NCBI GenBank assembly: GCA_052388515.1
Contig: JBQTHZ010000010.1
Span: forward strand, 565-64,564
Source: Chloroflexota bacterium
GTDB taxonomy: Bacteria; Chloroflexota; Limnocylindria; QHBO01
Direction: 5' to 3'
DNA: 64,000 nt
Positions 2,649 to 57,871 of the stretch are shown in pieces; the first letter of the stretch is position 1; each line of letters opens with the position of its first letter. Made by a program: the position numbers and the translations under genes. A model generated the notes under the pieces. The model had not been told where the DNA came from, ran no database searches, and saw nothing but the letters and a program-made list of their open reading frames with translations.

Positions 2649-3215
2649 CTATCGACGAAGCGCGGCGATGTCGGCCAGCGTGGCCACCAGCAGCCGATGC
2701 TCCTCCTCCAGGACGCGTGCGGCCAGCGCCTCGGGATCGTCGTTGGGCAGCACCGGGACGCGAGACTGGGCCAGGATCGGACCCGTGTCCAGGTCTGGCG
2801 TGACCTCGTGGATCGTCACGCCGGTCTCGGCGTCACCGGCCTGGAGCACCGACCGGTGAACGGCAAGCCCCGTCATCCCGGGGCCGCCATGTGCGGGAAG
2901 CAGGCTGGGATGGATGTTGATCGTCCGGCTACCGAACGCGGTGAAGTAGGACGGCCGCAGCAGCTGGTCGTATCCCGCCAGGAGCGCGAGCTCCACGGCC
3001 GCGCCGATGAAAGCCTCGCCGATCGCGGCGTCGCGCGCCTCCGCATCGGCGAAGTCGGCGCGGCGCAGGACCCGCACCGGGACCCCGTGGCCCGCGGCAA
3101 GCTCGAGCGCGCGCGCGGCCGGTCGATTGCTGATCACGAGCGTGACCGCGAAGCCGGCCCGCAGCACCGCCTCCAGGTTCGAGCCGCGTCCCGAGACGAG
3201 GACGCCCAGCCTCAT
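2649..3215 (-). CDS. purN: phosphoribosylglycinamide formyltransferase
   Basis: 188 aa with MRLGVLVSGRGSNLEA and the SLLP..G motif of PurN. Adjacent to purM. Confidence 0.9.
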   Translation of the reverse strand: MRLGVLVSGRGSNLEAVLRAGFAVTLVISNRPAARALELAAGHGVPVRVLRRADFADAEARDAAIGEAFIGAAVELALLAGYDQLLRPSYFTAFGSRTINIHPSLLPAHGGPGMTGLAVHRSVLQAGDAETGVTIHEVTPDLDTGPILAQSRVPVLPNDDPEALAARVLEEEHRLLVATLADIAALRR

Positions 3216-4243
3216 GCGAACCGGACGCGTGCCTCGCCATCGGGCACCGGGACCACCCGTCCGATGCGATACGCCTCGCCGAGCGCGGCGATCGCGACGT
3301 CCGCGAGGTCCGCCGGCACGACGGCGGTGAGCCCGATCCCCACGTTGAACGTCCGCACCATCTCCTCGTCGGCGATGTCACCGCTCGACTGGATGAGGCT
3401 GAAGATGCGCGGAGTTGGCCACGAGCCTGTCTCGATGTCGACACCCACGCCGGCGGGCAGCGTGCGCGGCACGTTCCCTTCCCAGCCGCCGCCGGTGATG
3501 TGGGCCATCGCGTGGATGTCGTCGCCTGCGTCGCGCAGTGCCCGACGCAGGATGCGCACCTCATCGAGGTACGATCGATGCGGCTCGAGCAGCGCATCGC
3601 CGATCGTGCGGCCATTGTCCGGCATCTGCCTGCCCCAGGTCTCTTCGGGCAGGATCCGGCGCGCCAGGCTGTAGCCGTTGGTGTGCAGGCCGGAGGATGG
3701 AAGGCCGATGACCGCATCGCCGCCCCGCGCCCGCGAGCCATCGACCAGGTCAGCTCGAGCCACGACGCCGACGATGAAACCCGCGAGGTCGTAATCGGCG
3801 CCCCGGTAGAGATCCGGCATCTGAGCCGTCTCACCGCCGATCAGCGGAATGCCCGCGGCGGCGCAGGCGGCAGCCACGCCGCCGACGATCTCCTCGACGA
3901 CGTCGGCGCGCAGGTCGCCGATGGCCAGGTAGTCCAGGAAGAAGAGTGGCGTCGCTCCGCTGACGACGATGTCGTTCATGCAGGCGTTGACGAGGTCGAC
4001 GCCGATGGTGTCGTGCCGCCCGAGCGCCACCGCGACCTTGAGCTTGGTCCCGACGCCATCCGTGCTCGACACCAGGATCGGATCGGCGTGGGCTCCGGGA
4101 TCGAAACGGAAGAGGCCACCGAATCCGCCGATCTCGCCCAGCACGGCCGGCGTCGCGGTCGCCGCCGCGGCCAGTGCGATGCGCTCGACGGCGCGCGCCG
4201 CCTCCTCCACGTCCACGCCGGCCGCGCGATACGTGCGTGCCAC
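3212..4243 (-). CDS. purM: phosphoribosylformylglycinamidine cyclo-ligase (AIR synthetase)
   Basis: AIRS motifs are present (DGVGTK, GGETAQMP). A GTG start at 4241-4243 overlaps the purF stop (GTGA); the longer ORF N-terminus looks non-coding. Confidence 0.9.
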   Translation of the reverse strand: MARTYRAAGVDVEEAARAVERIALAAAATATPAVLGEIGGFGGLFRFDPGAHADPILVSSTDGVGTKLKVAVALGRHDTIGVDLVNACMNDIVVSGATPLFFLDYLAIGDLRADVVEEIVGGVAAACAAAGIPLIGGETAQMPDLYRGADYDLAGFIVGVVARADLVDGSRARGGDAVIGLPSSGLHTNGYSLARRILPEETWGRQMPDNGRTIGDALLEPHRSYLDEVRILRRALRDAGDDIHAMAHITGGGWEGNVPRTLPAGVGVDIETGSWPTPRIFSLIQSSGDIADEEMVRTFNVGIGLTAVVPADLADVAIAALGEAYRIGRVVPVPDGEARVRFA

Positions 4244-44838: not shown

Positions 44839-45576
44839 TTGGCTGAGGACGCGCCGTTCGACGAAGACGACCAGCCCGTAGAAAGCGAGGCCGACGATCG
44901 CGAGCATGGCGAGCGCGACGAACATGAGTGGGGTGTCGAAGAGCCCCTGGTTGGCGATGTTGATGAGCACGCCGAGCCCGATCGAGGCACCCGCCCATTC
45001 GGCGACCACCGCGCCGATGACGGCCAGCGTCACGCCGACGCGCAGGCCGCCGAAGATGACCGGGAGGGCGGACGGGATCTCCAGCACACGGGTGCGCTGC
45101 GGTGTCGTGGCGCCCAGGCTGCGAAGCATCTCGGTCAGCAACGGGTCGGTGGAGCGGATCCCGACCATGGTGGCGATGGCGATCGGGAAGAAGACGATGA
45201 GCGCACAGATGACGACGCGCGCCAGCAACCCGCCGCCGAACCAGATGTCGAGGAGCGGCGCCAGCGCCAGGATCGGGACCGCCTGCGCGGCCACGATGTA
45301 GGGCGACAGGACCCGCTCGATGAGCACGCTCTTGCCGAGCGCGATCCCTGTCAGCACGGCCGTCGTGGCGCCGACCGCGAAGCCGAGCACGATCTCGAGC
45401 AGTGTCACGACGGTGTGCTCCCACAGGATGCCGGAGCCGATCGCGCGCCAGGCGCGCTCGCCGACGACCTCTGGCGCGGGCAGGATGTACTCCGGGTACC
45501 CGCCGATGACAGTCGCCAGCTTCCAGATCACGATGAACGCCCCAAGGCTGAGCAGCGCGGCGGCGATGCGTTTCAC
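44836..45576 (-). CDS. ABC transporter permease (binding-protein-dependent, SsuC/TauC-like)
   Basis: ~246 aa with 6 TM and an EAA-like loop (LRSLGATTPQRTRVLEIP). A GTG start overlaps the ATPase stop (GTGA). The longer ORF N-terminus is junk. Confidence 0.85.
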   Translation of the reverse strand: MKRIAAALLSLGAFIVIWKLATVIGGYPEYILPAPEVVGERAWRAIGSGILWEHTVVTLLEIVLGFAVGATTAVLTGIALGKSVLIERVLSPYIVAAQAVPILALAPLLDIWFGGGLLARVVICALIVFFPIAIATMVGIRSTDPLLTEMLRSLGATTPQRTRVLEIPSALPVIFGGLRVGVTLAVIGAVVAEWAGASIGLGVLINIANQGLFDTPLMFVALAMLAIVGLAFYGLVVFVERRVLSQ

Positions 45577-46400
45577 GCGGCCCCCTCCTGCTCCGCCCAC
45601 GGCCGCAGCTCGAGCGCGTGCACCGAGAGGAGCGCATCCCGCACCTCGGCGGCCAGCTCGGCAGCGCGTGGGTGACCCAGTAATTCGGTGGGTCGCGGGC
45701 GAGGCAGATCCACGTCCACGATGCGCGCCACGCGGCCCGGCCGCGGTGTCATGACGACCACCCGGTCGCCGAGGGCGATCGCCTCGCTGACGCTGTGGGT
45801 GACGAGGACCACCGTCCGGCGCTGGTCCAGCCACAGCCGCTGCAGCTCGCCGTCGAACGTCTCCCTGGTCAGGGCGTCGAGCGCGCTGAACGGCTCGTCG
45901 AGCAGGAGCACTGGCGGGTCGCCGATGAGCGCCCGGGCCAGCGCGGCGCGCTGCGCCATTCCACCCGAGAGCTCCCGCGGCAACAGGCTCGCGGCACCCG
46001 CGAGGCCGAGCCGGTCGAGGGCGCGTGCCGCGCGCTTGCGCCGCTCGCCCGACGGAGCGCCGGACAGCTCGAGCGGAAGGGCGACATTCTCGAGCGTCGA
46101 GCGCCACGGCACCAGCCTCGGCTGCTGGAAGGCGAGTCCGACCCTCCCGTCACCTGGCAGCGGTGCTCGCCCATCCACCGAGACGGCACCCGTCGTCGGC
46201 GAGAGCAGGCCGGCCACGAGCCTCAGCAGGGTGCTCTTGCCGCATCCGTTCGGCCCGATGATGACCGTGAATGAGCCGGCCTCGATCTCCAGGCTGCAGC
46301 CGGACAGGGCCTCGACGCCGCCGCCCCGCGCGCCGAAGCGCACGCCGACGTCGTCGATCCTGACGTCGAGGCCGGCGAGTGCGGTCGGCTGCAAGCTCAT
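45573..46400 (-). CDS. ABC transporter ATP-binding protein
   Basis: Walker A GPNGCGKST, signature LSGGMAQR and Walker B LLLDEP. Confidence 0.9.
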   Translation of the reverse strand: MSLQPTALAGLDVRIDDVGVRFGARGGGVEALSGCSLEIEAGSFTVIIGPNGCGKSTLLRLVAGLLSPTTGAVSVDGRAPLPGDGRVGLAFQQPRLVPWRSTLENVALPLELSGAPSGERRKRAARALDRLGLAGAASLLPRELSGGMAQRAALARALIGDPPVLLLDEPFSALDALTRETFDGELQRLWLDQRRTVVLVTHSVSEAIALGDRVVVMTPRPGRVARIVDVDLPRPRPTELLGHPRAAELAAEVRDALLSVHALELRPWAEQEGAA

Positions 46401-52540: not shown

Positions 52541-53734
52541 GTGGCGCGACGCGCGGCGAATGAGCCGCTGCCCGGAGCCCCGGACCCGTGGGCGGCGTCC
52601 GAGCCGCCGGCCTTCCGCGGCCGTCCGCCCTACCTGATGAGCGAGATGATCGCCGCGGAGCCGGCGCTCGCCGGGCGCCTCATGCTTCGGCTGGCGGAGG
52701 ACGACGCCGTCGAACAGCTGGTCCGCGCCATCCACGAAGCAGCGTCCGCCGGGCGTCCGATGCAGGCAACTGGCTGCGGCACCTCCGAGCACGCCGCCAT
52801 GGGAATCGCGGTCATGCTCTCCGAGGCGCTCGGCCTTCCAGCGGGCCACGAGGTGCGCTCGATTCCGGCACTCGAGGCGCTGTCACGGCCGCTCGCCGAT
52901 GGGCTGCTGATCGGCGTCTCGCACGAGGGCGGCACCGAGACCACCAACGCGGCGCTGCGGGCGGCGCAGGACGCCGGTGCTCGCACGGCACTGATCACCG
53001 TGAGCGGCGATTCTCCCGGAGCCGAGATCGCCGATCTCGTGGTTCGAACCGAGGAGCAGGATCAGAGCTGGTGCCACACCGTCGGCTACCTGTCGCCGCT
53101 CCTGGTGGGGGTGACGCTCGCCGCGCGACTGGCGCGTGCTGGGATCGATGCCCTGGCGATCCGCGCGCTCCTCGACGTGGCCAACGACCCGCATGCCGCG
53201 GCTGCAACCGCCTCAGAGTTGGCGGGCAGCGATCGGCTCATCGTCGCCGCTGCCGGTGCCGACTTCATCTCGGCGCGCGAGCTTGCGCTCAAGGTGGCGG
53301 AGGGCGCGCGGATGCCGGCCATGGCCCTCGAGCTCGAGACGGTGATGCACGGGCACCTCGCGGCCGCCACGCGTTGGACAGGGCTCGTGCTCCTGCTCAC
53401 GCAGCCCGAGCAGCCGGATGGACCGATTCGTCAACGGGGCACCCGGCTCCTCGCTGCCGCGAGCGCGCTGAAGGTTCCGGCCGCCGCCATCCTCTCGGCC
53501 GAGATCGCGACATCCATTGCGGCCGAGGGCACGCCCGCCGGGAGGATCGTCCTGCCGAAGGTGGGAAGGATCAAGGGCGTCGCCGGCTCGCTCCTCGGAT
53601 CCGCGCTCGCTCTCCAGCTGCTGACCGAGCGCCTCGCGCGCGCGCGCGGCGTGAACCCCGATACGCTCGGCCGCGAGGATCGCGCGCAGGCCGCCGCACA
53701 CGAGGAACCGGCACGCAGTGCGTCGCTCCCGTGA
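52541..53734 (+). CDS. SIS-domain sugar-phosphate isomerase/aminotransferase-like protein (GlmS C-terminal-like, no glutaminase domain)
   Basis: SIS signature ATGCGTSEHAA, then a second SIS-like half. The start may be the internal Met MSEMIAAEP (52637). Confidence 0.6.
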   Translation: MARRAANEPLPGAPDPWAASEPPAFRGRPPYLMSEMIAAEPALAGRLMLRLAEDDAVEQLVRAIHEAASAGRPMQATGCGTSEHAAMGIAVMLSEALGLPAGHEVRSIPALEALSRPLADGLLIGVSHEGGTETTNAALRAAQDAGARTALITVSGDSPGAEIADLVVRTEEQDQSWCHTVGYLSPLLVGVTLAARLARAGIDALAIRALLDVANDPHAAAATASELAGSDRLIVAAAGADFISARELALKVAEGARMPAMALELETVMHGHLAAATRWTGLVLLLTQPEQPDGPIRQRGTRLLAAASALKVPAAAILSAEIATSIAAEGTPAGRIVLPKVGRIKGVAGSLLGSALALQLLTERLARARGVNPDTLGREDRAQAAAHEEPARSASLP

Positions 53735-53768
53735 AGTCGCTCACGAGCCCAGCGCACGCGGCGCGCCG

Positions 53769-54851
53769 TCAACCGCGCAGGAGCCTGAAAAGGCGGACGT
53801 AGAAGCGCAGGTTGTGCAGCGTCGCGAGGCGCTCCGCCGACAGGTCGCCGACCTTGAACAGGTGATGGAGGTAGGCAGCCGAGTGGCGTGAGCAGACGAG
53901 GCAGTCACACCCCTCCTCGACCGGCTCGTGGTCGGTCCGGTATTGGGGGTCATGGATGCGGACCGCGCGGTAGAAGTGATCGCCGGGGGACGGCCGTCGA
54001 TCCATCCAGCCCTCTCGGAAGGCGTACAGCCGTCCGTGGCGCCCGTCGCGGGTCGGGAGGGCGCAGTCGAAGATCGAGTAGCCCAGCGAGAAGGCGTTGA
54101 CGACGTGATCGGGCCGACCGATCCCGAGCGCGTGCTTGGGAGCATCGGGTGGCAGCGACTCGGCCACCCAGCGCAATGGATCGGACAGGAGGGAGCCATC
54201 GGCCTCGAGCGGCCAGCCGCCGAAGCCGTACCCGTCGAAACCGATTTCGGCCAGGGCACGCGCGCACTGCCGCCGCAGTGCCTCGGATCCACCACCCTGG
54301 ACGACGGCGACGATCCGCGGCGGGTCAGGGTCGCGACGCTCCGCGAGCTGGCGATCAAACGCTTCGCGGCAGCGCATCGCCCACCGGACCGTCCGCTCGA
54401 CCGAACGCTCCTGCTCGGACTCGGGAGCGTCCGCATCGGTGCAGTCGTCCAGGCAGACCGCGATGTCGCTGCCGAGCTGGAACTGGAGCCCGATGATCCG
54501 TTCGGGACTCAGGTTCCACTTCTGGCCCGTGGACGGCTCCCGGAAGATGACCTCGTTGTCGCGGATCACGCCGCGGTTCGGGTCCTGGCGGATGAGGCTC
54601 CACACCTGGAATCCGCCGGAGTCGCTCAGGATCGGTCCATTCCAGTCCATGAACCGATGGATCCCGCCGGCGGCCTGCACCACTCGCGCGCCCGGACGCC
54701 GGAGGAGGTGGAAGGCGTTCACGACCACGCCCTCGATGCCGATCCCGCGCAGATCCTCAGCGCTCACACCACGCACGCCGGCCCGCGTCGCATCGGGCAG
54801 GAAGGTGGGCACCGGCAGCGTGCCGCGCCGCGTGACGATCGGCTCAGCCAT
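53769..54851 (-). CDS. tgt: queuine tRNA-ribosyltransferase family protein
   Basis: TGT fold (LPDATRAGV..., DSGGFQV, VQGGG, zinc site CDCLVCSRHSAAYLHHL). Somewhat shorter N-terminus than E. coli Tgt. Confidence 0.85.
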   Translation of the reverse strand: MAEPIVTRRGTLPVPTFLPDATRAGVRGVSAEDLRGIGIEGVVVNAFHLLRRPGARVVQAAGGIHRFMDWNGPILSDSGGFQVWSLIRQDPNRGVIRDNEVIFREPSTGQKWNLSPERIIGLQFQLGSDIAVCLDDCTDADAPESEQERSVERTVRWAMRCREAFDRQLAERRDPDPPRIVAVVQGGGSEALRRQCARALAEIGFDGYGFGGWPLEADGSLLSDPLRWVAESLPPDAPKHALGIGRPDHVVNAFSLGYSIFDCALPTRDGRHGRLYAFREGWMDRRPSPGDHFYRAVRIHDPQYRTDHEPVEEGCDCLVCSRHSAAYLHHLFKVGDLSAERLATLHNLRFYVRLFRLLRG

Positions 54852-55638
54852 GCAGCGTCAGCACGAAGACGAGCTCATTCGGGACCGATGCCTCCGCCAC
54901 CTCACGGACCCGTCCGACATCCGCACCCAGCCGCTCCAACCGCTCGCGGTACGTGCGCTCCATCCCACTTCCTCGCCCGCCGAGGGATCGTTTCGGGAAG
55001 CTGACCACCGCGTGCCTGACACGGAGCGCGCCGAGCATGCGCGCCGCGGCCGCCCGGTCCTGGCGATCGATCGTCGTCACGAGCTTGAGCAGGAGGGCGA
55101 CATCCGCGGCGTCTGTCGGAGTCGTCCCCACCACGTCGCGGACGTCGACCCGATGCGGCTGTCCCACCAGTTCGAGAAAGGATGAGACCGTGCCCAGGGG
55201 CCTCCGGTCGACATCGGACGCAAGGTAGTTGGCGTCGGGACCGATCCCCATCCACGGCAGGCTGAGCGGGTTGAGCCCACAGCCGAGGTCCATGAGGCTA
55301 CCCGGCTCGCCCGTCAGCGACCAGATGCCGTCGTAGAAGGCGTCCAGGTGCTCGACGCGCTCGCGTGTCGATGCGTGAGCGCGAAGTGCATCGGCGCAGG
55401 CCCGCCGAAATGCTGGGTCGGCAAGATCGCCGGACCACGCGGCGGCGAGCGCATCCGGCTGCGCCGTGCCGCGAAAGGCGCCCACCGCCTGGTGCAGCCG
55501 GCGCTTCACTCGCTTCACCGCTTCGTCGGTGCTGCGGGCGTTGGGCAGCTCCTCCCCGGCCAGGCGGGCCACCAACGAGCGATCGACATCGCGGTAGCGC
55601 GATGAGCGGAGCACGCGCTCCACGATCTCCGCGCTCAT
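54844..55638 (-). CDS. 16S rRNA (guanine1405-N7)-methyltransferase family protein (ArmA/Rmt/Kgm/FmrO family)
   Basis: Co-linear with ArmA over the full length. Blocks match: IVERVLRSSRYRDVD (ArmA VVKKILESKKYENLD), KRRLHQAVGAF (KKKLHQIWGSY), HASTRERVEHLDAFY (HSSTNERVATLNDFY), LMDLGCGLNPLSL (ILDFGCGFNPLAL) and VVSFPKRSLGGRGSGM (VISFPIKSLSGKEKGM). The start ATGA overlaps the rsmI stop. The stop overlaps tgt by 8 nt. Confidence 0.8.
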   Translation of the reverse strand: MSAEIVERVLRSSRYRDVDRSLVARLAGEELPNARSTDEAVKRVKRRLHQAVGAFRGTAQPDALAAAWSGDLADPAFRRACADALRAHASTRERVEHLDAFYDGIWSLTGEPGSLMDLGCGLNPLSLPWMGIGPDANYLASDVDRRPLGTVSSFLELVGQPHRVDVRDVVGTTPTDAADVALLLKLVTTIDRQDRAAAARMLGALRVRHAVVSFPKRSLGGRGSGMERTYRERLERLGADVGRVREVAEASVPNELVFVLTLHG

Positions 55639-56465
55639 CGGTCTCGAAGCCGCAGCACGAGCGCATACGCGTCGCGCTTCGAGAGGCCATGGCGCTGCCT
55701 CAGCAGCTCCTGGACGGCACGCGCGGACGTATCGGCCTCGAGCAGGAGCACGGCATCAGCCGTGGCATCCTCGGTCACGCCCGATCGTTCGACCGCGCCG
55801 CCGATGAGGAGCGTGCACTCGCCGCGCACCGGTCCCTCAGCCTCCAGCTCGGAGATCAGCTCGGAGAGCGGTCCGCGCTGGTATCGCTCGTGCGGCTTGG
55901 TGATGCTGCGCGCCAGGCAGGCATCCCGGTCGCCGAGCGTGGCGAGCGCGTCGCGAAGCGCATCGGTCAGGCGCCCTGGAGCTTCGAAGCCGATCAACGT
56001 TGCCTCGTCGCCGCGCACGTGCTCGAAGATCGCGCGCCGGGCAGCCGCCGTGCGCGGCAGGAAGCCGAGGAAGCGGAATGGGTGAGGCGGCAATCCCGAC
56101 GCTGCGAGTGCCGTGGTCACTGCCGATGCGCCGGGCAGGCTGGTGACCCTGACCCGTGCCTCGATCGTCGCGCGTACGAGACGATATCCGGGATCGCTGA
56201 TGAGCGGCGTGCCCGCGTCACTGACGAGGGCCACGTCGGCTCCGGCTTTCAGCGTCGCAAGGAGCTCCGGAGTGCGCGACTTCTCGTTGTGATCGTGATA
56301 GCTGACGGCCCGCGTCTCGATGCCGTGGTGCCGTGCCAGTGTCGCGAAGTGGCGCGTGTCCTCCGCCGCGACGACCTCCACGGCTCGCAGCGTCTCAAGC
56401 GCCCGGGCGCTCAGGTCGTCCGGGTTGCCGATCGGTACCGCGACGATGAACAGGGTGCCGTTCAT
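55635..56465 (-). CDS. rsmI: 16S rRNA (cytidine1402-2'-O)-methyltransferase
   Basis: Tetrapyrrole-methylase fold (LFIVAVPIGNPDDLSARALETLRAVEVVAAEDTR). The start is at MNGTLF (ATG 56463-56465). Confidence 0.85.
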   Translation of the reverse strand: MNGTLFIVAVPIGNPDDLSARALETLRAVEVVAAEDTRHFATLARHHGIETRAVSYHDHNEKSRTPELLATLKAGADVALVSDAGTPLISDPGYRLVRATIEARVRVTSLPGASAVTTALAASGLPPHPFRFLGFLPRTAAARRAIFEHVRGDEATLIGFEAPGRLTDALRDALATLGDRDACLARSITKPHERYQRGPLSELISELEAEGPVRGECTLLIGGAVERSGVTEDATADAVLLLEADTSARAVQELLRQRHGLSKRDAYALVLRLRDR

Positions 56466-56848
56466 GCATCGTCTCGCACGTACACCGCGCCCGCCCACTC
56501 GACGCAGCTCAGTCGACGGAGCGCCAGCGTCCAGCTCGGTTCCGGATCTCCCGGCGCCTGCTGCACCACGAGAAGGAGGTGATCGTCGCGACGAACAATC
56601 GCCGATGCGTTGAGGATGGTGGTGACCGGCATCTCGCTCGGAGCGTAGCAGGGCCTCACGGGCCGTTCATTGCCGGCGCGGGTGCACATTGCCGAACTGC
56701 GGTCGTGACTCGAACAATGCTCGCGCTGGTGAGCGTTGCCGGCCCCTCACGCCGGTGACGGAACGTCCTTGAGCGTGACGGGCGACCCATTGGGTCTGAT
56801 TCTCTGTCCAGTGCTCACTGAAGTGATCATTGTTCCAACCAGTCGCAC

Positions 56849-57871
56849 GTGGGGCACGCAAGGCTCGTTCCGGCGATCATCGTCGATCGTCGCCGCCTGG
56901 CGCCGCCCGGCACAAAGGCCGCCGGCTCAACGACCCAACTCGCTACGATCAACCGCGTGCCGGGATTGATCGAGTGCGTGCCGAACTTCAGCGAGGGGCG
57001 CCGCGACGAGGTCGTCGAGCAGATCGTGCGCGCGATCGGCCAGATCGAGGGCGTGACGGTTCTCGATCACACCCGTGACGAGACCCACAACCGCAGCGTC
57101 GTCACGTTCGCCGGCAGCGCCGAGCCGGTCGTCCGGGCGGCGACGGCGGCGGTCGGCCGGGCGCTCGAGCTGATCGACATGGAGCAGCACCTGGGCGCGC
57201 ATCCTCGCATCGGCGCCGTGGACGTCATCCCCTTCGTCCCGCTGGGCACCACCCGGATCGAAGAGTGCGTTGACCTGGCGCGCAGGTTCGGCGAGCAGAT
57301 CGCGACGCGCTTCGAGATCCCCGTCTACCTGTATGGCGATGCGGCACTGCGCCCGGATCGCCGGCGGCTGGCCGACGTCCGACGCGGCCAGTACGAGGTG
57401 ATCCGCGATGAGATCGGCACGAACCCGATGCGAGCTCCAGACTTCGGCCCGCTCAAGACGCACCCTCGTGGCGGTGCCGTGGCGGTCGGAGCGCGGAAGC
57501 CGCTGATTGCCTTCAACATCAACCTGCGCACCGATGAGCTCGCCACCGCCATCAAGATCGCGAGCGCGATCCGGGAGAGCTCGGGCGGCATGCCGGCGGT
57601 CCAGGCCATGGGAGTCCTGCTCGAGAACCCTGGCGTGCGCCCCATGGCGCAGGTCAGCACCAACCTGGTGGACTGGGAGCGCACCGGCATCGCTTCCGTC
57701 GTGCGCGAGGTACGGCGGCTCGCACAGGAGGCCGGAACGGATGTTGACCATTGCGAGCTCATCGGTCTGGCCCCGACCGGCGCGCTGCTCGAGGTGGCGG
57801 CCGACACCCTGGGGCTGGCCGACTTCAGCGCGGACCAGGCGCTCGAGCTGCGCCTCGCTCGCGACCGTTAG
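56849..57871 (+). CDS. glutamate formimidoyltransferase (formiminotransferase domain, FTCD N-terminal type)
   Basis: LIECVPNFSEGRRDEVVEQIV is the hallmark N-terminus of the formiminotransferase domain. The true start is probably a GTG/TTG shortly before this motif rather than ATG 56849. Confidence 0.8.
   Translation: MGHARLVPAIIVDRRRLAPPGTKAAGSTTQLATINRVPGLIECVPNFSEGRRDEVVEQIVRAIGQIEGVTVLDHTRDETHNRSVVTFAGSAEPVVRAATAAVGRALELIDMEQHLGAHPRIGAVDVIPFVPLGTTRIEECVDLARRFGEQIATRFEIPVYLYGDAALRPDRRRLADVRRGQYEVIRDEIGTNPMRAPDFGPLKTHPRGGAVAVGARKPLIAFNINLRTDELATAIKIASAIRESSGGMPAVQAMGVLLENPGVRPMAQVSTNLVDWERTGIASVVREVRRLAQEAGTDVDHCELIGLAPTGALLEVAADTLGLADFSADQALELRLARDR

Follow-up and report, generated by a model that had tools for sequence, protein, structure and literature searches.

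A predicted Arm/Rmt-type 16S rRNA methyltransferase gene coupled to rsmI and a divergent tgt as a core gene of Limnocylindria

Three overlapping genes on the minus strand of a contig from a Chloroflexota bacterium of the class Limnocylindria (contig JBQTHZ010000010.1, assembly GCA_052388515.1) place a predicted Arm/Rmt-type 16S rRNA methyltransferase between rsmI and tgt, at positions 53769–56465 of the 64,000-nucleotide stretch that was analysed (hereafter the window). The reading that best explains the observations as a whole, and that we consider quite likely, is that the middle gene encodes an Arm/Rmt enzyme forming N7-methylguanosine at G1405 (m7G1405), and that it is a vertically inherited core gene coupled to rsmI and tgt. 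The first gene, rsmI (55635–56465), encodes the 16S rRNA C1402 2'-O-methyltransferase (PF00590 TP_methylase, TIGR00096). It is followed by the FmrO/Arm–Rmt-family 16S rRNA methyltransferase gene (54844–55638; 264 amino acids, PF07091), a predicted m7G1405 enzyme, and by tgt (53769–54851; 360 amino acids, PF01702, TIGR00430), encoding a tRNA-guanine transglycosylase (Tgt) that belongs to a divergent clade linked to FmrO and reads GGWPLEA where canonical enzymes have GGLAVGE. The end of rsmI overlaps the start of FmrO by the 4 nucleotides ATGA (55635–55638), and the end of FmrO overlaps the start of tgt by the 8 nucleotides ATGGCTGA (54844–54851), so that the three minus-strand reading frames overlap in the way the first-pass annotation of this DNA had proposed when it described them as one operon.

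The mechanically called reading frame of rsmI spans 55635–56498, with the earliest in-frame GTG at 56498. The likely start is the ATG at 56465, as previously proposed, which gives a protein of 276 residues and fits the orthologues in related contigs (276–277 residues). RsmI matches TP_methylase PF00590 in Pfam with an E value of 4.8e-29, scores 213.9 bits on the NCBIfam model TIGR00096 (cut-off 167.9), and lies below the enterobacterial model NF011570 (213 bits vs 502). At the other end, tgt follows FmrO and is convergent with a SIS-domain gene. The trio recurs in three related contigs (L001–L003), overlapping by 4 and 8 nucleotides as in the window, and because the called genes of all three show these identical overlaps of −4 and −8, the overlaps exceed chance. 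We infer one transcript for the three genes, as we do the substrate of the Tgt protein.

Placement of the middle protein in the FmrO/Rmt/Kgm family, as originally suggested, is borne out by the full-length profile match, the matches to solved structures, the retention of critical residues and the position in the tree, and we therefore describe it as a predicted Arm/Rmt-type (FmrO, PF07091) S-adenosylmethionine (SAM)-dependent methyltransferase. The search against PF07091 for which the first-pass annotation had called gave 180.8 bits against a cut-off of 27 (E 4.2e-53, Pfam), with protein residues 11–259 covering profile positions 1–255 of 255. The best match among solved structures is Sgm (3lcu), with an E value of 1.2e-44 and 37% identity between window residues 4–260 and Sgm residues 19–279; over the same residues 4–260 the protein also matches RmtC, RmtB, ArmA and the 260-residue G1405 methyltransferase chain 6pi9_A. 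A single alignment of residues 4–260 with RmtC 10–278 and 6pi9_A 11–256 suggests the same layout of N1/N2 30S-binding and Rossmann parts. The alignment with ArmA across its length, on which the original family assignment was built, runs over residues 4–259 at 27% identity, and the C-terminal motif cited with it is present as VSFPKRSLGGRG. Identity to RmtG is 30.5%. An NCBI record of a 100% identical protein is already named "16S rRNA methyltransferase [Chloroflexota bacterium]", and more than 100 further homologues at 71–83% identity are, where named, mostly from Chloroflexota/Limnocylindria.

Functional residues were compared by aligning the window protein with RmtF, RmtB, RmtE, RmtC and ArmA from plasmid records, using the SAM-binding and functionally critical positions defined for RmtC (10.1101/712810). 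All of these positions are identical or conservatively replaced. RmtC K20, R50, H54, R111, D160, D188, R211, Q212, K236, R241 and M245 correspond to R14, K45, H49, R94, D142, D168, R192, Q193, R217, R222 and M226, respectively. The SAM-binding set (RmtC R111, D160, D188 and Q212) is thus present as R94, D142, D168 and Q193, and the DxxCGxNP motif as DLGCGLNP. The set associated with 30S recognition and activity (R14, K45, H49, R192, R217, R222 and M226) is either identical or shows K/R swaps of a type that characterised enzymes display as well. The Limnocylindria orthologues retain these residues, except for a few assemblies with a truncated or broken FmrO or tgt match, which is consistent with frameshifts.

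A bootstrapped neighbour-joining (NJ) tree of 106 FmrO sequences, corresponding to the phylogeny with known enzymes that had been recommended, groups the window protein with Sgm, ArmA and RmtB–G, on the side of a split from the paralogues that has 77% bootstrap. Limnocylindria sequences, including the window protein, form one clade with bootstrap values of 96–100, and a clade of rsmF-linked FmrO paralogues has a bootstrap of 95. Many Anaerolineae loci carry two tandem FmrO genes whose products are mutually 24–31% identical. The second paralogue lies directly upstream of a gene for an RsmF-like (C1407) methyltransferase (at 5810- in L061, 5001–5759 in L092, 5894- in L055, and in 17 other loci), in many cases as the tandem partner of the copy linked to tgt. 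The C-terminal loop of this second paralogue is altered, with G244 deleted, M245L and Q212R according to the alignment (RmtC numbering).

The proposal that the gene is intrinsic and integrated with housekeeping functions, rather than a recent cassette, agrees with a class-wide trio with its flanks, an even GC content, housekeeping neighbours and the absence of mobile families among those listed. Among Limnocylindria-type loci, sampled at one genome per species, the order rsmI > FmrO > tgt is found in 17 of 17 (L014–L030). The 8-nucleotide FmrO/tgt overlap is kept in 14 of these 17 genomes and both overlaps in 8 of 17, with start codons chosen heuristically. Orthologues at 65–83% identity show no difference in gene order or in the overlaps at codon level. 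The related contigs share their flanks with the window, with the formiminotransferase gene FTCD and argS on one side and the SIS-domain gene and hutU (urocanase) on the other. GC content of the operon is about 0.69–0.71, the same as that of its surroundings, with no anomaly, and the wider gene content of the window comprises purine biosynthesis, guaA, dnaB, dinB, hut genes and argS. No transposase or mobile-element families were seen among the families listed for the 64-kb window. The same holds for aminoglycoside-biosynthesis families: the first-pass annotation had also advised inspection of the genome for an aminoglycoside cluster, and none was seen among the families listed for the window, the rest of the genome lying outside the scope of the inspection. 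Vertical inheritance of FmrO as a core gene in Limnocylindria, as opposed to recent acquisition as a cassette, is supported by these observations.

Beyond the class, a genome scan with a 12-sequence FmrO alignment, again with one genome per species, gave 80 loci from Limnocylindria, Anaerolineae (including the isolate Bellilinea caldifistulae), Caldilineae, Chloroflexia, Ktedonobacteria, Latescibacterota and Chthonomonadales. A tgt gene like that of the window lies directly beside FmrO in 59 of the 80 loci (43 tgt > FmrO and 16 FmrO > tgt) and within about 2.3 kb of it in 9 more. Twelve loci lack a nearby window-like tgt, four of them ending at a contig end. An rsmI-like gene is part of the cluster in 41 of the 80, and the gene orders include rsmI-tgt-FmrO, tgt-FmrO-rsmI and FmrO-rsmI-tgt. 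Recurrent neighbours are genes for the RsmF-like C1407 methyltransferase (23 loci), rsmE, acting at U1498 (16), and a queuosine-precursor transporter gene (12). None of the 80 genome loci was found to carry rsmH, which occurs only in the Clostridia-like operons and in the plasmid pKP13f described below. The trio first noticed in the window is therefore real but less singular than it had appeared, since the window operon is the form taken in one lineage by a module that is old and widely distributed, consisting of FmrO, a special Tgt clade and usually rsmI or rsmH.

Two further observations were made among these loci. In Anaerolineae L056, L059, L061, L062, L068, L069, L083 and L084, tgt is preceded by a short rsmI-like gene (about 208 residues, at about 3210–3840 in most loci) that is 30–36% identical to the window RsmI, and in L061, L068 and L084 a second, closer rsmI (39–43% identical) is found within a few kb on the other strand; the short gene may be a different TP_methylase paralogue. 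A locus from an unclassified bacterium with 37% GC (L041, 3929–6655) carries tgt > FmrO > rsmI with overlaps of 8 and 4 nucleotides, between a transporter gene and alr, with rpsB, tsf and tmRNA close by. The FmrO protein of this locus clusters with ArmA and RmtB–G (bootstrap 82) and is about 32–35% identical to the clinical enzymes, and the Tgt protein clusters with plasmid-borne Tgt proteins (bootstrap 73).

The Tgt protein of the window matches PF01702 (E 3.3e-96, Pfam) and passes TIGR00430 marginally (312.4 bits vs 306.75, NCBIfam), and it matches the Zymomonas mobilis enzyme with an E value of 2e-72. The catalytic D102 and D280, the guanine-binding D156 and Q203 and the CxCxxC...H zinc site are conserved, and the motifs DSGGFQV, LDDCT, FDCALPTR and CDCLVC are present. 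Fold family, catalytic and zinc-site residues and the TIGR00430 pass are thus shared with the canonical Tgt of E. coli and Z. mobilis, but the window protein is only about 35% identical to these, has a remodelled pocket, and is encoded in an FmrO/rsmI context instead of queA-tgt-yajC. For a broader comparison, 65 FmrO-linked Tgt proteins were set against six canonical ones (E. coli, Brevibacillus, Pusillibacter, Enterococcus, Xanthomonas and Z. mobilis). The linked proteins show a mean identity of 53% among themselves and 35% to the canonical set, and the two groups separate in 100 of 100 NJ bootstraps. A pocket segment that reads GGL(A/S)VGE in canonical enzymes (Z. mobilis 229–235) is replaced by GGWP(L/I)(D/E)x in 65 of 65 linked proteins (GGWPLEA in the window), and YLMGVG is mostly HALG(I/V)G. 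Structural work on the Z. mobilis enzyme places in segment 229–235 the L231/A232 peptide switch and E235, which discriminate guanine from preQ1. The linked proteins have no Glu at 235, and their Pro at 232 has no amide N-H.

The window Tgt is hence a predicted transglycosylase, the base preference of which is uncertain because the GGWP segment removes Glu235 and Pro232 lacks the amide N-H. Its original assignment to tgt agrees with the TIGR00430 result, whereas its labelling as a standard wobble-base Tgt was an extrapolation, the GGWP subfamily being divergent. The genomic setting also differs from the usual queA-tgt-yajC neighbourhood, in which the window tgt does not lie: among five canonical examples fetched, yajC is directly downstream of tgt in four, two of which also have queA upstream, and the fifth has no annotated neighbour. 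A preQ1 riboswitch that would tie the operon to queuosine metabolism was not found in the window or in 13 loci. Queuosine-precursor transporter genes lie nearby, which argues that the FmrO-linked Tgt may still act in 7-deazaguanine metabolism. The GGWP clade is monophyletic, occurs in several phyla and stays beside FmrO through at least four gene orders. A bolder proposal, which we regard as unlikely at present, is that the GGWP Tgt is a distinct transglycosylase acting with preQ0, a 7-substituted guanine or on another RNA target and co-evolved with m7G1405, and that FmrO, GGWP Tgt and rsmI or rsmH would form a dedicated, horizontally mobile decoding-centre module serving as a natural reservoir of the clinical rmt genes.

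Pieces of the same arrangement are found on clinical plasmids. In pS68, an IS91-family transposase gene is followed by a truncated tgt that overlaps the rmtE2 start by 11 nucleotides. In K. pneumoniae 2964TF the order is tgt > rmtD2. pKP13f carries rsmH > tgt > rmtG (with an 8-nucleotide overlap), an N-terminal rsmI fragment and an IS91-like element; the 8-nucleotide overlap sits at the equivalent junction, with the order tgt then rmtG, and the rsmI fragment matches the window RsmI with an E value of 5e-16. When the window Tgt was searched by tblastn against 72,556 plasmids, the rmt-linked tgt genes ranked first, at 45–51% identity vs about 36% for chromosomal-type tgt. The Providencia plasmid p12100-NDM (L011, 4980–7721) has tgt > metallophosphoesterase gene > rmtB2, the middle gene being YaeI-like; this order is found in none of the 80 genome loci, among which the source context of rmtB is unmatched. 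Chloroflexota loci and the 50%-identity representatives were rejected as direct donors of the clinical enzymes, the best of them being only 33–40% identical.

A closer source could be traced for rmtG. A search with RmtG gave uncultured homologues at 94, 89 and 77% identity, the contigs of which carry a complete chromosomal rsmH > tgt > FmrO > rsmI operon. In the metagenome-assembled genome (MAG) GCA_965348695.1 this operon is surrounded by murF, ddl, pgi, spo0A and a gene for a class-Ib tRNA synthetase. The pKP13f segment (L010, 4021–7069) is 84.9% identical in DNA to this MAG over 3.06 kb (L099, 5937–8988), and matches two metagenome contigs (L103 and L104) at 93.9% and 96.8%. It retains the 3' end of the synthetase gene, and the homology stops inside rsmI at the IS91-like element. 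The same rsmH-tgt-FmrO-rsmI operon is present in more distant Clostridia MAG relatives. A Clostridia-like rsmH-tgt-rmt-rsmI operon is therefore the probable source context of rmtG, and these native operons are a concrete lead to the donor lineage, uncultured spo0A-bearing bacteria.

As a system, the window operon resembles this native operon behind rmtG. Both are chromosomal housekeeping operons with FmrO, rsmI and a GGWP tgt, overlaps of 4 and 8 nucleotides and core-gene flanks. Unlike the window operon, the native operons (L099, L100, L102 and L103) have their own gene order and include rsmH, they belong to another phylum, with spo0A and a T-box leader near, and their FmrO proteins are of the RmtG/RmtD lineage, 50–94% identical to RmtG. 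The acquired enzymes ArmA and RmtA–H belong to the same family at 27–36% identity and share the critical residues, and rmtB2, rmtD2, rmtE2 and rmtG have a tgt partner of the same GGWP clade, joined in rmtG by rsmH upstream and the rsmI fragment downstream. However, the acquired genes are found on plasmids beside ISCR/IS91, IS26 and Tn3 elements, and there tgt precedes rmt, in contrast to the window order of rsmI, FmrO, tgt; none of the acquired enzymes is a near relative of the window protein. The producer enzymes (Sgm and, by name, FmrO, GrmA and KgmB) share the Pfam family, the two-domain layout and the SAM-binding and loop residues, but the window gene lies outside any biosynthetic cluster, in a class-wide rRNA/tRNA-modification operon of a Chloroflexota, non-actinomycete host.

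Parts of this picture are already known, namely the NCBI annotation, the Chloroflexi homologues in a published tree and the clinical tgt/rsm neighbourhood. The tree in 10.1101/712810 already includes Chloroflexi homologues according to its legend, which was all that the literature searched gave on FmrO in Chloroflexi. Linkage of clinical rmtG and rmtD to tgt, rsmH and rsmI has been recorded (PMC9311965, PMC3904158, PMC8446631), with "a putative tRNA ribosyltransferase" upstream of rmtG (PMC3904158) and an "IS91-rmtD1-tgt-groEL-IS91" arrangement (PMC8446631); the clinical literature records the tgt neighbour without further discussion. A link between rmtE and a transglycosylase was not found in the literature searched, nor were the wide distribution of the module, its dedicated Tgt clade, the second FmrO paralogue or the source context of rmtG.

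The remaining features of the window are a gene remnant and a riboswitch. Upstream of rsmI, a NUDIX gene remnant (56462–56632, minus strand) was recognised by tblastn with the intact NUDIX protein of the relative L002. Residues 1–56 of that protein align with window positions 56632–56465 at 46% identity, convincingly only for the first 36 or so, and residues 115–124 with 56524–56495 in the same frame. In the relatives L002 and L003 the operon begins with an intact 149-residue NUDIX gene, which overlaps rsmI. What is left in the window are about 36 N-terminal and 20 C-terminal residues in frame, the Nudix-box core being gone, and the stop of the remnant shares an ATGA with the rsmI ATG. The only Rfam match in the window is an FMN riboswitch (RF00050, 46475–46637, minus strand; 79.7 bits vs a gathering threshold of 66.2), located upstream of the minus-strand gene 45573–46400.

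According to the mechanism that we propose, the N-terminal helical domain of FmrO would dock on the assembled 30S subunit and the enzyme would methylate N7 of G1405 in helix 44 of 16S rRNA, three nucleotides from C1402, which RsmI would 2'-O-methylate. Co-transcription and translational coupling of rsmI, FmrO and tgt via the overlaps of 4 and 8 nucleotides would ensure that the three products, directed at the decoding centre and the tRNA wobble base, are made together. Constitutive m7G1405 would then confer insensitivity to 4,6-disubstituted deoxystreptamines (kanamycin, gentamicin, amikacin and tobramycin). ISCR/IS91 elements, in turn, would have captured the clinical rmt genes from modules of the FmrO and GGWP-Tgt kind. 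The G1405 target, the enzymatic activity and the resistance are all predictions from family membership.

Several points weigh against the reading of the middle gene as an intrinsic m7G1405 enzyme of a single operon. Identity to characterised enzymes is only 27–37%. The NCBIfam Rmt-family model NF000466 aligns over profile positions 2–253 of 254, but because the score of 212.6 bits is below the curated cut-off of 250, the window protein falls outside this curated equivalog, which NCBI uses for antimicrobial-resistance naming. PF07091 includes one or more paralogue clades that are uncharacterised, so the target nucleotide does not follow from membership of the family by itself. Sampling for the trees was limited, NJ was the sole method of construction, and the key deep split has a bootstrap of 77%. 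The family lists behind the exclusion of a biosynthetic cluster comprise 25 families each and cover 64 kb of the genome. Finally, promoter and terminator scans of 53500–57000, which are uninformative for this phylum, detected none that would bound the transcript.

An alternative is an FmrO-family paralogue that modifies another nucleotide or another RNA, or is catalytically silent, in which case neither m7G1405 nor resistance would result. The family extends far beyond the characterised set (1516 clusters at 50% identity, 298 of them with E < 1e-30, by exhaustive HMMER search), the tandem second FmrO of Anaerolineae shows that members with an altered loop form a clade of their own, and the window protein is under the NF000466 cut-off. 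We nevertheless consider this quite unlikely: the loop residues R217, R222, G225, M226 and E227, together with H49, R94, D142, D168 and Q193, are kept as in the characterised enzymes, the window protein groups with Sgm, ArmA and the Rmt enzymes and not with the divergent clade, and linkage to tgt is common to the proven m7G1405 enzymes RmtB, RmtD, RmtE and RmtG. A self-resistance gene of an aminoglycoside producer, as for fmrO, sgm, grm and kgm in actinomycetes, would fit with Sgm as the best relative of solved structure and with reviews that give intrinsic 16S methylation as a producer trait (PMC9311965). This is very improbable for a gene whose conservation extends through an entire class and into several phyla and which, in every relative examined, belongs to an operon for rRNA/tRNA modification instead of a biosynthetic cluster, with no aminoglycoside-biosynthesis family among those listed for the window. 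Insertion of a recent resistance cassette between rsmI and tgt is equally hard to credit. The family is highly mobile in pathogens, with 1583 matching plasmid records, but the GC content here equals that of the flanks, no mobile-element genes were seen nearby among the listed families and the related contigs, order and overlaps are identical in orthologues at 65–83% identity, and the Limnocylindria sequences form one clade with 96–100% bootstrap.

A different kind of question is what m7G1405, if made, is selected for. The company of genes for enzymes acting at C1402, C1407, U1498 and the wobble base favours a constitutive decoding-centre programme of which resistance is a built-in consequence. 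Going further, there is a good chance, if slightly less than even, that the selected role is tuning of the ribosome within the decoding-centre/wobble set and resistance a side effect. The gene always occurs with other constitutive modification genes (rsmI, rsmH, rsmF-like, rsmE and tgt), the genes are translationally coupled, and the arrangement is present in anaerobic, aquatic and soil lineages. Against this, ArmA/Rmt methylation in E. coli is reported to be costly and to block RsmF methylation of C1407, which suggests no obvious benefit.

Reviews tie intrinsic G1405 methylation to aminoglycoside-producing actinomycetes; the acquired rmt genes are largely of unclear origin. The window adds a third case, in which an Rmt-type gene belongs to the core genes of a non-producer and is coupled to its neighbours within an operon for ribosome and tRNA modification. 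Uncultured Chloroflexota, Latescibacterota, Armatimonadota and Clostridia-like bacteria commonly have this arrangement, always with the same unusual Tgt clade. The clinical genes rmtB2, rmtD2, rmtE2 and rmtG still carry pieces of such an operon, and rmtG has native counterparts at 85–97% DNA identity. Two questions thereby become testable, the source of pan-aminoglycoside resistance genes and the physiological role of m7G1405 beyond drug protection. Intrinsic insensitivity to the kanamycin and gentamicin classes is predicted for abundant soil and freshwater lineages, and would bear on strategies for their enrichment and isolation.

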